A stretch of DNA of 64,000 nucleotides from Minisyncoccota bacterium (lineage in GTDB: Bacteria > Patescibacteriota > Minisyncoccia > JAHIHE01 > JAGLIN01), in NCBI GenBank assembly GCA_041661265.1, contig JBAZUT010000001.1, positions 1,854 to 65,853 of the forward strand, read 5' to 3'. This document shows, one piece after another, positions 60,297 to 63,741 of the stretch (the stretch's first letter is position 1; every line of letters starts with the position of its first letter). Below the pieces are notes generated by a model, which saw only the letters and a program-made list of their open reading frames with translations, did not search any database and was not told the DNA's origin. Position numbers and translations under genes: made by a program.

Positions 60297-60487
60297 ATTT
60301 ATAAATATTATTTAATAAACAATACGATGTCCGTCCTTAAATTTCAAACTGTAAATTTAATACGTAAAATTAATCTAGTTTTTTTTAATCAAGCTCGCCT
60401 TCGCGAATCTACTGGCCTGGCTTCGCCGGAGGCTACGCCAAGGCGAGCGGACTGTGTCACGCCGTAGCTTCGCTTCGGCGAAGCGAA

Positions 60488-60632
60488 GGCGGTGTGCGTT
60501 CGAAAATATCCGAACCGATTTCAGCGAAAATTAAGCGGAGCGGGCAGAATTTTTACCCCGTAGCGAGCTCGCTCTGCTTCGGGGCACCCCCAAACCCCCC
60601 TTCCGCCCGCCCGCGGAGGCGACCATTTCAGA
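60488..60632. repeat. left copy of 145-bp perfect inverted repeat (IR-A)
   Basis: Reverse complement of 61942-62086, identical over ~145 bp, contains the 12-bp palindrome AGCGAGCTCGCT (60562-60573). Confidence 0.85.
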
Positions 60633-60724
60633 TTGGACGATTTCAAGTTTTCTTTGGCGGCAAATTCTTTTAATTCGGAAAGTCGGGACTCAACGCTAAA
60701 AATTGTCGTTTTGTCCGGCATAAA

Positions 60725-61123
60725 CTATATTAATCTTATAAGAATAAAAGCTCCGATAATCCAATCATAGATCATACAAAAATAAATGTACCATTCCGGC
60801 ACTTTTGTTTTTACAATTTGAGATTCTCTGCGATGAATCGCATCCCATATCCCGTGCCAAAAATAACCGATAACGAGAACTAAAGGATTAATCCATAAAC
60901 CAGCGAGTATTAAGATAAAAAATAGCGTAATATTCGTTACTTCTATAATAATTTCTTTAGCGCCCCCGCTCAAAAAAGCATAACCAAAATAAACCGCAGC
61001 AATTCCCATAAGAACTACTGCAAAGAATTCTATTTCTTTTGGCTTTGAAAAAAACGAAGCAATAATAATCGTTATCAATGATAGAATTATTCCTAATATT
61101 AATCCTCTGTTTTTTTCACTCAT
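60725..61123 (-). CDS. membrane protein (hypothetical), paralog of 61159-61581
   Basis: Shared LAGLW(I/V)NPL...WD...P motifs, 4 TM segments. Confidence 0.5.
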   Translation of the reverse strand: MSEKNRGLILGIILSLITIIIASFFSKPKEIEFFAVVLMGIAAVYFGYAFLSGGAKEIIIEVTNITLFFILILAGLWINPLVLVIGYFWHGIWDAIHRRESQIVKTKVPEWYIYFCMIYDWIIGAFILIRLI

Positions 61124-61158
61124 AGTTCATAAAATTTAATAGTTAATATTTATCATTT

Positions 61159-61581
61159 TTACCGCCACCAAACTAAAATAAACACGCCGAGCAGAATGTC
61201 GAAAGCAACACATGTAGGCACATACCAAAATGCAACGGATGTATTGAGAGTCTTTGGATGTTCAATGATGATGTCCCAGACAGCATGTACAAAACATGCC
61301 AACGCGAGAAATAATGGATTCACCCAAAGACCTGCAAGCGCGAGAACGAAAAAAACCGCGGAAGCTCCGTCTTGAAGAGCAGCCTTCTTTAGGCTGGCAG
61401 TTAACAGTCCTACACCCAAATAAACGCCGCCAAAATATCCGACTAAAACAACCAAAATATCTCGAGCATGTGCCTTAGATAATAATGTAATAGCAAAAGA
61501 GACAACAATGGCGCCAATTACGCCAATGAACATAGGTATTTTACGATTCATAATATTTCCCTTCATATTTTCTTGTTCCAT
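61159..61581 (-). CDS. membrane protein (hypothetical), paralog of 60725-61123
   Basis: As above. Confidence 0.5.
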   Translation of the reverse strand: MEQENMKGNIMNRKIPMFIGVIGAIVVSFAITLLSKAHARDILVVLVGYFGGVYLGVGLLTASLKKAALQDGASAVFFVLALAGLWVNPLFLALACFVHAVWDIIIEHPKTLNTSVAFWYVPTCVAFDILLGVFILVWWR

Positions 61582-61590
61582 ATTATTATT

Positions 61591-61797
61591 TTATTTTATT
61601 AGATCTTCAATTGAAACGCCAAGAGCTTTAGCAATCTTTGCCATAATTAACACAGACGGTTTTTTAATCACATTACTCTCAATTTTTGTCAGGGTGGTAT
61701 ATTTAACACCAGATTTTTTGGCAAAATCCTCCTGCGATAAACCTAGCTTTGCGCGATATCGTTTTATATTTTCTCCAATATTGATTTCTGTTGCCAT
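61591..61797 (-). CDS. XRE-family (Cro/C1-type) helix-turn-helix transcriptional regulator
   Basis: IKRYRAKLGLSQEDFAKKSGVKYTTLTKIESN HTH signature. Confidence 0.8.
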   Translation of the reverse strand: MATEINIGENIKRYRAKLGLSQEDFAKKSGVKYTTLTKIESNVIKKPSVLIMAKIAKALGVSIEDLIK

Positions 61798-61941
61798 AAT
61801 TTCAATAATTTGATAGTATTATACTGATATGATATTATTTCAATATAATACTATCACAAAATTATAAATTCGGGAAGCCCGCTTTTGGCCTAAAATGAAT
61901 TCGAGCCGATATTTTTTCAGGTTCTTTGGCAGTTTTTCAAT

Positions 61942-62086
61942 TCTGAAATGGTCGCCTCCGCGGGCGGGCGGAAGGGGGGTTTGGGGGTGCCCCGAAGCAG
62001 AGCGAGCTCGCTACGGGGTAAAAATTCTGCCCGCTCCGCTTAATTTTCGCTGAAATCGGTTCGGATATTTTCGAACGCACACCGCC
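61942..62086. repeat. right copy of 145-bp inverted repeat (IR-A); its last 5 bp (CCGCC) are shared with IR-B
   Basis: Reverse complement of 60488-60632. Confidence 0.85.
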
Positions 62087-62140
62087 AGTTGGAAAACTGG
62101 GGGGAATTGGCAAGGGTTCGCCAGCCGATTTTCCCTTTAT
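62082..62140. repeat. left copy of ~58-bp inverted repeat (IR-B), begins with CCGCCA (= tRNA-Ser 3' end sequence)
   Basis: Reverse complement of 63600-63657. Confidence 0.8.
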
Positions 62141-62217
62141 GAATTTTTTATCTTTGCCCGCAGTAGCGGGCAGGCCAAAAGCGGGCTTCCCGAATTTTCT
62201 ATTTAATTTTAAAAACT

Positions 62218-63690
62218 ATGAAATATTTTATCTACACAAGAAAATCAACGGACAGTGAAGAAAGGCAAGTTTTAAGCATTGAATCTCAAATTTCCGAATT
62301 AAAAGAATTTGCCGCCAAAGAAAAACTTGAAATCGTCGCCTCGCCAAGCGAGGCAAAAACTGCCAAAGAACCTGGCCGAACTGTGTTCGGCGAAATGCTT
62401 GATCGGATTGAAAAAGGCGAAGCCTGCGGAATTTTGGCTTGGCATCCGGATCGACTGGCTAGAAATTCAATTGACGGAGGTAAAATCATTTATTTGCTGG
62501 ACACTGGAAAAATAAAAGATTTGAAGTTTCCGACATTTTGGTTTGATAGTACGCCGCAGGGAAAATTTATGCTAAACATTGCCTTTGGCCAAAGTAAGTA
62601 TTACATCGACAATCTAAGCGAGAATATCAAGCGTGGACACCGAGCAAAACTACGAAAAGGCATTTGGCCGACTTTTGCCCCGCTTGGTTATTTGAATAAC
62701 CACAAAACCAAAGGGATTGATATTGACCCTGAAAGAGCGTCATTTATTAGAAAAGCCTTTGAGCTTTACGGAACTGGTGAATACACACTAAAAGCCATTG
62801 TAAAGGTTTTGGGGCAAGCGGGGCTAAAAAGCTACAAAGGCAATGTTCTTTCCGTCTCCAGTGTCCAGCGTATGCTTCAAAACTCGATTTATTACGGCGT
62901 ATTTTCTTTCAATGGCTAAGTTTACGACGGAACGCATGAGCCGATTATTTCCAAGAAACTTTTTGATACTGTTCAACAAGTCATGAGTAATCGAGGAAAA
63001 AAGCAAAGAAAGAGAAAGCGTGAATTTGCTTTTTCAGGTTTGATGAAATGCGGTTCTTGTGATTGCCTCATAACCGCCGAAAAGCAAAAAGGACATCACT
63101 ATTATCGCTGCACCAAGAAAAAGCAAAAGTGCGATGAAAAATATTTGCGGGAAGAAAAACTTGTTGAACAAATGAAAGCAGTTATTCAAAAAGTTTCTTT
63201 GCCTGACGATTGGGTGAAAAATATGCTTTTAGAGATAGACAAAGAAAAAGAGCAAGTCAACGAAGAAACAAAAAATATTGTTCAAAATCTTTATAGCCGA
63301 AAAATTGAAATTGAAACAACAACCGAAAAACTGCTTGATCTTTTTATTGAAGGCAAAAGCATTGAGCCCGAAGAATACCAAGCTAAAAAACAAAAACTTC
63401 TCAATGAGAAGCTGGACATACAACAGCGGATAAAGGATTTTGAACAAATGGGAAATAATCGGCTCGAACCGATGAAAGAAATGATTTTAGCCAGTAGCCA
63501 AGCCAAAATTCTTTTGTCGCAAGGCGACAATCAAAAAATCCGAGCATTTCTAAAAAATATCGGCTCGAACTTCATTTTGAAAGATAAAAAATTCTTATTT
63601 AAAGGGAAAATCGGCTGGCGAACCCTTGCCAATTCCCCCCAGTTTTCCAACTGGCGGAGAGGGAGGGAGTCGAACCCTCGAGACTTTTGA
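62218..63690 (+). pseudogene. large serine recombinase (resolvase catalytic domain + recombinase domain + zinc-ribbon + coiled coil) interrupted by an in-frame TAA at 62917-62919; 3' end uncertain (ORF runs into IR-B/tRNA)
   Basis: YTRKSTDSEERQ catalytic Ser region. ...FSFNG*VYDGTHEPIIS... continues in the same frame. FSGLMKCGSCDCLITAEKQKGHHYYRC zinc ribbon. Confidence 0.8.
63600..63657. repeat. right copy of IR-B, abutting/overlapping the 3' end of tRNA-Ser
   Basis: Reverse complement of 62082-62139. Last 6 nt are the tRNA 3' terminus. Confidence 0.8.
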
Positions 63691-63741
63691 CGGTCTACCG
63701 CCTTTCCAAGGCGGCGCACTCGACCACTATGCGACCTCTCC
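63652..63741 (-). tRNA. tRNA-Ser (anticodon GGA), type II with long variable arm, encoded CCA
   Basis: GGAGAGG acceptor, 3-bp D stem, anticodon loop TTGGAAA, T-arm GAGGG-TTCGACT-CCCTC, 3' CCTCTCC-G-CCA. Confidence 0.9.

Follow-up and report, generated by a model that had tools for sequence, protein, structure and literature searches.

The 64-kb window analysed here (64,000 nt of contig JBAZUT010000001.1) belongs to a metagenome-assembled genome (MAG) labelled Candidatus Paceibacterota in NCBI, within the candidate phyla radiation (CPR). Near the right end of this window, two adjacent DNA segments, each enclosed by its own perfect inverted repeat (IR), abut the 3' end of a tRNA-Ser(GGA) gene, and one of them encodes a large serine recombinase (LSR). 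The locus raises the question whether such a structure is one mobile element, two elements side by side, a DNA switch or an assembly artefact. The reading favoured here, with a probability of about 0.7, is that positions 60488-63657 are one integrated LSR element, containing an internal, inverted copy of its own attachment (att) site, attP, and belonging to a widespread CPR family.

In the following, module X is the cargo segment inside IR-A and module Y the recombinase segment inside IR-B; a and b are the attP arms, a' and b' their inverted copies, l is the host left half-site, and U', e', s' and r' are small sequence patches. Relatives were collected by scanning one genome per species, which yielded 80 loci, identified by L-numbers. 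A recombinase database search produced thousands of matches, and the identities, labels and lengths given for homologues refer to the best 120.

Inverted repeats and attachment sites

The two arms of IR-A, at 60488-60632 and 61942-62086, are 145 nt long and 100% identical (self-BLAST E value 1.8e-71); a repeat search of the window stretches them to 150 nt at 99% identity. IR-B (62082-62139 and 63600-63657) measures 58 nt at 100% identity and continues, in the self-BLAST, to 62155 and 63580 at 93.6% identity with gaps. These values reproduce those of a preliminary description of the locus, where a perfect repeat of 145 bp and one of about 58 bp ending in the tRNA-Ser 3' end had been reported, together with a CCGCC sequence shared at the module junction: this is the 5-nt overlap of IR-A and IR-B at 62082-62086. 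GGCGG is found in direct orientation at 60488-60492 and 63653-63657, and the right arm of IR-B terminates in the last six bases (..GCCA) of the tRNA gene. No further copies of IR-A or IR-B were detected by self-BLAST in the window. The tRNA-Ser(GGA) gene (63652-63741, minus strand), which would supply the B' half-site of attB, is the sole tRNA gene of the window; it is intact, its CCA being now provided by the element, and its T-loop motif GTCGAAC lies at 63669-63675.

The meaning of these repeats becomes apparent when the junctions are compared among loci. In an alignment of 26 loci, the first junction consists of variable host sequence, core and arm a; the second, read in reverse complement, of b, core and a; the third of b, core and tRNA. 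The flank past b-core corresponds to a called tRNA in 21 of the 26 loci. The core is 3-7 nt long in 22 of them, its right edge falling constantly after the second acceptor-stem base, and takes in the discriminator base of the tRNA together with bases 1 and 2 of the acceptor stem, which in the window fall inside GGCGG. The outer GGCGG copies, already proposed in the preliminary description as an att core, thus belong to a core common to all three junctions across loci. On sequence grounds, the junctions are attL (60488), a complete internal inverted attP, and attR (63657) of a LSR element; it follows that IR-A is arm a paired with a', and IR-B is b' paired with b.

In detail, attL is formed by the host trailer hairpin, half-site l (60468-60487, minus strand), which lies outside the element, followed by the first core copy (GGCGG, 60488-60492, plus strand) and by arm a, i.e. 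the left arm of IR-A (60488-60632, plus strand), composed of the attP P' half-site and about 120 additional nt, with TCCGAAC at 60509-60515. The internal inverted attP (61942-62139, minus strand) comprises a' (61942-62086), the core CCGCC (62082-62086) and b' (62082-62139), which carries on more weakly to 62155. Arm b, the P half-site of attP (63600-63657, plus strand), is the right arm of IR-B; it ends with the third core copy, in attR (63653-63657), and codes for the C-terminal tail of the recombinase. Two palindromes noticed at the outset are both present: the one of 10+1+10 nt at 60468-60488 is the host trailer hairpin and does not belong to the element, and the 12-bp palindrome AGCGAGCTCGCT at 60562-60573 is located within a lineage-specific 35-nt hairpin insertion (60552-60586).

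The spacing of sequence motifs around the core provides a further indication. In the 16 loci where it was read on the printed alignments, the motif [TC][TC]CGAAC occupies positions +17 to +23 in arm a, and the T-loop sequence TTCGAAC positions +12 to +18 in the tRNA arm, so that GAAC ends 23 nt past the core in the former and 18 nt past it in the latter (16/16 in both cases). In the A118 and other serine integrases, the motif bound by the zinc-ribbon domain is 5 bp further out in attP than in attB (Rutherford et al. 2013, PMC3783163), and the shift in the family of the window corresponds to this rule. The enzyme would read the tRNA T-loop as its zinc-ribbon-domain motif. Judging by motif spacing and site symmetry, strands would be exchanged at the two final core bases, and GG (60491-60492 and 63656-63657) is the putative crossover dinucleotide. 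A palindromic central dinucleotide, which would allow joining in either orientation, was considered and rejected: the minimal cores of Gln, Val and Ala targets, CTG or TGG, do not contain one at the required position. A Ser-type core could hold the palindromic CG.

The host flank at attL changes from one related locus to the next, frequently taking the form of a terminator-like hairpin. In three uninterrupted tRNA-Ser loci of other organisms the hairpin of the window is found directly 3' of the tRNA, and the reconstructed attB is hence a natural sequence. The hybrid nature of attL and attR and these three uninterrupted sites bear out the earlier proposal of an integrative element at the tRNA-Ser 3' end. 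As the comparison indicates, attP (b-core-a) recombines with attB (any trailer plus a tRNA 3' end) by a crossover within the 3-7 nt core; integration produces attL at 60488, joining the trailer hairpin to a, and attR at 63657, joining b to tRNA-Ser, and a second, complete, inverted copy of attP separates the recombinase gene from the cargo/xre operon.

Some features of the arms may concern the transcript of the target gene. Read from the tRNA 3' end, b' (62082-62160 / 63575-63657) gives CCA, a stable hairpin and a T-rich run, and resembles a substitute tRNA trailer or terminator. A long GC hairpin, followed by TTAATTTT, is likewise present in arm a' (61960-62050). A structured RNA within the GC-rich arms was considered and discarded: at E<=1, Rfam gave, apart from the tRNA, only tRNA-like matches below threshold, which overlap that gene, and at the gathering threshold the tRNA alone was detected in the whole window.

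Independent assemblies

The region is near the window end, short-read assemblies break exactly at IR-A, and fold-back chimeras are typically inverted: these circumstances would fit an origin of both repeats as artefacts of assembly or amplification, a concern already expressed in the preliminary description. In the European Nucleotide Archive (ENA), the MEGAHIT contig k141_269461 (ERZ27249449, 113 kb) starts exactly at position 61946, its first 141-mer being the outermost k-mer of IR-A, and from there matches the window at 100% identity across the junction of the two repeats, the recombinase gene and the tRNA. The left flank is contained in k141_266943 (61 kb), whose end is placed at window position 60628 by coordinates only, not by alignment. 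A contig from the Joint Genome Institute (JGI) corresponds to 60510-62064 at 100% identity; it holds module X with 123 nt of IR-A on either side. From these breakpoints it follows that IR-A is a real repeat, connected outwards to the left flank and to IR-B and inwards to the two ends of X; the path of the window is the sole linear path through the assembly graph, apart from the orientation of X, which k-mers shorter than the 145-nt arms cannot fix. The same two-repeat layout, with sequences of its own, is found in at least 26 other genomes, one of which is complete (L079, AP024682.1). As all three junctions are represented in an independent k=141 assembly, the left one by contig coordinates, as X is recovered unchanged by JGI, and as the architecture recurs with lineage-specific sequences in dozens of MAGs built with different assemblers, a chimera can be discarded for practical purposes.

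Assembly breaks of this kind recur among the relatives. In 19 of the 80 loci the contig starts in IR-A or IR-B, no more than about 320 nt ahead of the recombinase gene (L011-L013, L017, L018, L020, L036, L037, L047, L049, L058, L062, L073, L076, L078, L080 and L081 among others). Contig starts were also considered as a sign of mixed orientation, an idea which was dropped, since the start points follow the likely k values of the assemblers.

The recombinase gene

The recombinase open reading frame (ORF; 62218-63690, plus strand) spans 490 codons and carries Resolvase, Recombinase and Zn_ribbon_recom domains. PF00239 is matched by residues 4-149 (E = 1.4e-18), with a YTRKST motif including Ser10 in the translation; PF07508 and PF13408 are matched in the C-terminal part, where a coiled coil was judged by sequence alone, and residues 172-437 match the C-terminal domain of the A118 integrase (4kis, E = 7.3e-9). 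Domain content and the A118 match agree with the enzyme class assigned to the gene in the preliminary description. An in-frame TAA at 62917-62919 replaces a codon which specifies Glu in 89 of 92 homologues (GAA in 77, GAG in 12). It arises by a single G-to-T change and is seen in both independent assemblies; the gene of the window is probably a recent pseudogene. Because of this nonsense codon the window copy is probably immobile, stranded unless recombinase comes in trans.

The best 120 homologues are 61-93% identical and carry labels of Patescibacteria, Nitrospira, Brocadia, Saganbacteria and others; many of them are located on contigs of 1.5-3.5 kb. Their length varies from 366 to 817 aa, probably in large part because the ORF reads into host DNA. 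In the window, the ORF crosses IR-B and enters by 33 nt the opposite-strand tRNA gene (63580-63690), the last 10 or so codons being host-encoded; in the b-core-a context, the tail would read CAFENIRTDFSEN. One homologue of 559 aa (P0051), present on 7 contigs and 80% identical over 93% of the query, is a fusion of a XRE helix-turn-helix (HTH) domain to the recombinase. A phage or plasmid origin was evaluated and set aside: a search of 2.9 million viral contigs gave one distant, truncated match.

Layout of the related loci

For 70 loci the downstream sequence was long enough to be read, and in 61 of these a minus-strand tRNA gene directly follows the recombinase gene. The target is a tRNA-Ser in 32 loci; Gln, Leu, Trp, Val, Ala, Arg, Asn and Tyr tRNAs are also used. 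IR-B was found in 49 loci, with a mean length of 92 nt and at least 98% identity in 39 of them, and IR-A in 33 loci, with a mean length of 105 nt and at least 98% identity in 24. The latter is placed just upstream and shares a few bases with IR-B; the segment between its arms measures 0.8-5.6 kb. The a'-core-b' structure is present upstream of the gene in the 35 loci termed 'std', where U', e' and s' precede it and the cargo module has the orientation seen in the window, and in the eight printed loci with enough upstream sequence. Exceptions are a group of deletion derivatives, where the structure is missing at this place, and two loci, L053 and L087, where a tRNA takes its place. Inspected loci without a detectable left arm of IR-A keep an a'-like arm and the core, and several of them are devoid of the U', e' and s' patches.

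The layout of the window is repeated in L009, which has the same small patches and is about 81% identical in nucleotides over the shared backbone, with a major facilitator superfamily (MFS) transporter as cargo. This locus has another tRNA-Ser(GGA) gene (L009:48-138), oriented like the target tRNA and separated by about 530 nt from the left end of the element. Related composites have in common a followed by r', on one side, and the block extending from xre through a'-core-b' and the recombinase gene to b, on the other, while their interiors are unrelated and code for DNA methylases, restriction enzymes, a S24 peptidase, transporters and other products. A common backbone with unrelated interiors leads to the conclusion that the three sites travel together as one unit, in which the cargo between r' and xre is freely replaced.

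Loci with more than one unit were also found. L079 is a tandem composite, in which the gene is followed by b-core-a-r' and then by another, degraded, recombinase gene; L023 is possibly of the same kind. L085 (199-2600) contains two cargo units, with a and r' ahead of each, and L065 (1800-4900) three copies of r'. The junction of the L085 units is a palindrome from which about 40 core-proximal nt have gone in both arms, and fits a decayed tandem composite, not a site-specific insertion at the cassette level.

The multi-unit loci have to be weighed against the possibility that X and Y are independent elements lying side by side: an autonomous Y, with an attP of the form b-core-b', and a non-autonomous X (a'-core-a), mobilised in trans and stacked in an integron-like fashion. 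Each module does have its own perfect inverted repeat, cargo is unrelated in otherwise related elements, and serial insertions beside a tRNA are conceivable because the left half of attB is non-specific; the repeated units of L085 and L065 would also find a place in such a model. The recombinase module alone beside host DNA (host-core-b') was not encountered in any of the 80 loci, and a'-core-b' is present in the inspected loci with enough upstream sequence, save for the exceptions listed above; L085 fits the decay of a tandem composite, and the joining of two attP-type sites is not among the known reactions of LSRs. Two separate elements thus appear unlikely. Likewise, the two nested integration or inversion events envisaged in the preliminary description are largely unsupported, the middle junction being the element's own inverted attP and the layout being inherited as a whole.

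Identity of the arms

Most pairs of arms are 97-100% identical within a genome, compared to 82-96% between related genomes. The 35-nt hairpin insertion occurs in both window arms (60552-60586 and 61988-62022) and is absent from L005 by BLAST; by eye, it seems also to be absent from the arms of L015, L044 and L053. Its presence in both window arms and not in L005 implies that one arm was copied onto the other, and points to arm-to-arm copying (gene conversion) as the process which would keep the arms identical.

Long and nearly perfect arms could also be required by a folded single strand. According to this hypothesis, a pairs with a' and b' with b, the continuous a'-core-b' strand acting as a splint for both ends, and the inverted attP lets one strand, taken up or transferred as single-stranded DNA, form a double hairpin or dumbbell whose stacked stems rebuild b-core-a. 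Hairpin sites of this sort, such as folded attC sites and the attP of the CTX phage, are rebuilt for tyrosine recombinases, and CPR bacteria are widely thought to import DNA. Among arm mismatches, G.T wobble pairs are not biased to one strand (17 vs 15 in IR-A, 20 vs 17 in IR-B), and a strand-specific folding of the arms finds no support in these counts. In addition, serine recombinases cut both strands of a duplex, so that cutting the stem of a dumbbell would leave the chromosome with hairpin-capped ends; the promoter of the recombinase would be in single-stranded form; and the backbone showed neither a relaxase nor a Rep gene. Folding of single-stranded DNA is therefore considered very improbable.

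Recombinase-gene patches and the sigma hairpin

The inner ends of the IR-A arms are accompanied by small patches, not listed in the preliminary description, which derive from the recombinase gene and its borders. Patch r' (60636-60711, minus strand), a degraded copy of recombinase codons 15-40 or thereabouts, abuts the inner end of the left arm. Three further patches, all on the minus strand, precede the right arm: s' (61918-61937) is a copy of 62355-62374, codons 46-52; e' (61892-61917) of 63552-63578, the last 27 nt before IR-B; U' (61859-61891) of 62172-62204, the 33 nt just upstream of the gene. The self-BLAST, in which all four appear as reverse-complement matches, places them at 60636-60702, 61918-61937, 61892-61917 and 61866-61891, respectively. 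U', e' and s' are kept with the same boundaries in relatives.

In the intact gene, r' ends precisely where a 7-bp hairpin called sigma begins, a border shared by 27 other loci. Sigma (62338-62354, plus strand; codons 41-46 of the recombinase ORF) is the stretch of 17 nt between r and s, and its place in the gene corresponds to that of the a'...a palindrome in module X; in the aligned loci r' and s' end exactly at the sigma borders. Across an alignment of 66 loci, 53 double changes were counted against 17 expected, a value reached in none of 500 shuffles, and 88% of the cells pair; the hairpin, which encodes 'AS[LF]xEA', is held by compensatory synonymous changes. The sequences beside it, r and s (33 and 20 nt), are almost invariant in nucleotides across the main clade, even at 53% protein identity. 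A subfamily characterized by the 'xxFxES' sequence has no sigma and no patches, yet it keeps a'-core-b' and IR-B. As judged from these borders, module X is topologically a circle formed by s, e, U, cargo and r, opened at the sigma position of the gene and capped by a...a'. An interpretation of r' as the U-tract of a terminator following arm a, or of an antisense sigma, was tried and abandoned, the T-rich run beginning more than 10 nt past the stems.

Orientation of the modules

The cargo module has the same orientation as in the window in 35 loci and the opposite one in a single locus, L015. In L005/L010 and L044 the gene starts at codon 29, without the catalytic serine, and a-s-e-U is found at the left end of the element: these loci look like the outcome of a flipped state, followed by a deletion between the r copies, now in direct orientation. 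The genes of L039 and L059 also begin at codon 28-29; their left ends were not seen. The P0051 fusion may be another deletion product of the flipped state. L015 and the deletion derivatives indicate that inversion does occur, and the flipped state seems to be short-lived; in the proposed scheme, the cargo module would invert rarely and the flipped state would decay by deletion between the now-direct patches.

These observations bear on the proposal, put forward in the preliminary description, of a phase-variation switch, in which the recombinase would flip the xre/DUF6010 cassette, its own gene or both, and alter their expression. Perfect inverted repeats at both segments, with a recombinase encoded beside them, are what such a switch would be made of, the flipped locus and its deletion derivatives are in line with it, and near-perfect arms are the outcome to be expected from frequent recombination between them. 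The 35:1 bias in orientation across genomes speaks against a switch, and the gene reads toward the tRNA in the 61 loci mentioned above; the only clear exception is L053 (2500-4400), where it reads away from a tRNA-Trp and the left and right b arms are unrelated. The enzyme, 490 aa long, is of the integrase type and not a small invertase, and in the window it is truncated by a stop codon. Canonical serine integrases recombine attP with attB only, attL x attP and attP x attR not being permitted. Both modules have promoter-like sites of their own, and no orientation-dependent promoter or gene fusion was found. A recombinase-driven switch is, on the whole, quite unlikely.

A different rearrangement is observed in L087 (5750-7620), where the recombinase module lies, in inverted orientation, between a tRNA-Ala(cgc) gene and a 3' fragment of a tRNA-Ala. 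This layout, a single case, is what one would expect had the internal attP recombined with another tRNA gene. Next to the module is a tRNA-Ala(tgc) site that seems to be empty.

Cargo module and xre-recombinase intergenic region

Module X encodes two DUF6010 membrane proteins as cargo, of 132 aa (60725-61123) and 140 aa (61159-61581), and a XRE-family HTH regulator of 68 aa (61591-61797), all on the minus strand, the regulator being divergent from the recombinase gene. Domain searches agree with the gene content originally indicated (a XRE protein, two membrane proteins and a large serine recombinase). An ORF of about 70 aa occupies the position of xre in at least 10 relatives, and the one of L014 fits HTH families, so xre is taken as a backbone gene of the element family.

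An imperfect palindrome upstream of xre (61791-61876), overlapping divergent promoter-like sites, is a likely operator. By matches to the consensus only, the best sigma-70-like site of the region lies within this palindrome, at 61810-61838 on the plus strand, directed at the recombinase gene. A transcript starting there would have a leader of about 370 nt, in which U' pairs with U and the whole internal attP is enclosed (61791-62217); the predicted fold of the leader RNA is very stable (minimum free energy -165.6 kcal/mol, z = -7.5). Its location between divergent promoters and the stability of the leader fold suggest an additional role for the internal attP, which probably also serves as a recombinase-binding operator or insulator.

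Assessment of the single-element model

The reading of 60488-63657 as one LSR element with an internal attP has to face several observations which weigh against it. An empty site from the same species was not found, the 24-nt pattern l+core+tRNA matching three distant organisms only. The junction of an excised circle (recombinase 3' end-b-core-a-r') was also not found; among the nine loci lacking a tRNA after the gene, no circle is required where the structure was resolved (L079 is a tandem, L023 perhaps, L053 is inverted, L086 is masked). A crossover at the core cannot produce r', s', e' and U', and the sigma-exact boundaries are not accounted for. The orientation of module X relies on the depositor's assembly across the 145-nt repeat. 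L087 and L053 are single rearranged loci, which could also result from homologous recombination between elements. No recombination directionality factor was identified and, besides xre, no conserved candidate was noticed in the backbone. Finally, under canonical attP x attB rules the internal attP has no partner inside the element, and its conservation is left unexplained.

The internal attP might be conserved as an operator or as a partner for recombination at a second site. Its inverted orientation has a consequence of its own, since recombination with either end of the element can only invert. In the single-element model it would stay a live site, able to recombine with other tRNA genes, because in L087 the module is located between two tRNA-Ala 3' ends and L079 is a tandem composite. 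Along these lines, a bolder version of the model may be tentatively considered: a bipartite serine-recombinase element which stays 'armed' while integrated and which, without needing a directionality factor, could invert or exchange its modules and recombine with further tRNA genes, using a second type of junction at the centres of palindromes, i.e. at sigma and at the inner ends of IR-A and IR-B. This version is possible, and we hold it with reserve.

Implications

If the comparative reading is right, the element represents a very large family of compact serine integrases, with labels from several phyla, both of whose att sites can be read straight from genomes, the bacterial one being the universally conserved 3' end of a tRNA. 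Use of the T-loop as a zinc-ribbon-domain motif, with the textbook 5-bp shift, would help to explain DNA recognition by these enzymes, which might furnish integration tools, also for CPR bacteria, so far genetically intractable. A permanent inverted attP and the accompanying fragments of the recombinase gene go beyond what the current model of serine integrase elements would predict and may signal an unrecognised mechanism of regulation or rearrangement; were the 'armed' version true, the element would be the functional equivalent, based on a serine recombinase, of shufflon or integron platforms, reshaping small CPR chromosomes. In practical terms, the element flags small islands with restriction-modification and other accessory genes, and accounts for recurring assembly breaks beside tRNA genes in CPR genomes.

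Comparison with known systems

In the full-text literature searched, which does not cover all journals, no account was found of serine integrases that target tRNA genes and have an inverted attP inside the element, and tRNA is nowhere mentioned in the large LSR discovery papers. The LSRs of phages (A118/LI, phiC31, Bxb1, SPbeta) are alike in their resolvase, recombinase and zinc-ribbon domains with a coiled coil, in the quasi-symmetric attP and in the short core. The window element differs from them in that it has no phage genes, its attB is a tRNA 3' end with a non-specific left half, a second, inverted attP is present, the ORF crosses attR, and no directionality factor is evident.

SCCmec, the staphylococcal cassette chromosome, is an island mobilised by the Ccr LSRs (CcrA/CcrB) at the 3' end of rlmH, whose internal att copies are direct repeats, so that modules excise separately. 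Compared by architecture only, it resembles the window element as a LSR island at the 3' end of a conserved gene, with recombinase-less cargo beside a recombinase module, repeated att sites at module borders and terminal inverted repeats, whereas the window element has one recombinase, a tRNA target and an inverted internal site, leading to inversion instead of excision.

Among tycheposons and cryptic elements, 910 out of 937 use tyrosine recombinases (bioRxiv 10.1101/2020.12.28.424599); in the text of this preprint an internal inverted att site is not described, and the lone mention of 'inverted repeat' is in a cited reference. The likeness lies in small islands at tRNA genes of reduced genomes, with variable cargo including defence genes, and in tandem arrays. 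The window element differs by its serine recombinase and by an identity with the tRNA of just 3-7 nt. Integrons, too, depend on a tyrosine recombinase, IntI, acting on attI and on folded attC sites, in contrast with the serine type and the absence of strand bias in mismatches found here; multi-unit arrays occur here as well (L085 and L065), but their internal junction looks like a collapsed palindrome left by a tandem composite.

In the yeast 2-micron plasmid, the tyrosine recombinase FLP acts on identical sites and flips a segment for copy-number amplification. Once excised, the window element would similarly be a circle split by two inverted sites, with one segment encoding the recombinase; it differs in having no replication genes and in an enzyme type which is not known for attP x attP recombination. 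The res sites of Tn3 and gamma-delta, made of three subsites, act as direct repeats in cointegrates, and the binding of resolvase represses both divergent promoters. Here too a serine-recombinase site lies between divergent genes, which by analogy would offer a possible role for the internal attP. The Hin, Gin and Pin invertases are proteins of about 190 aa with a C-terminal HTH, in contrast to 490 aa with integrase-type C-terminal domains, and their switches have short inverted crossover sites around a promoter or alternative gene segments, as opposed to the att arms of 58-145 nt found here. Overall, the enzyme and the site logic of this candidate element are those of serine integrases, while its architecture is unlike that of phage modules, SCC elements, tycheposons and small-invertase switches.

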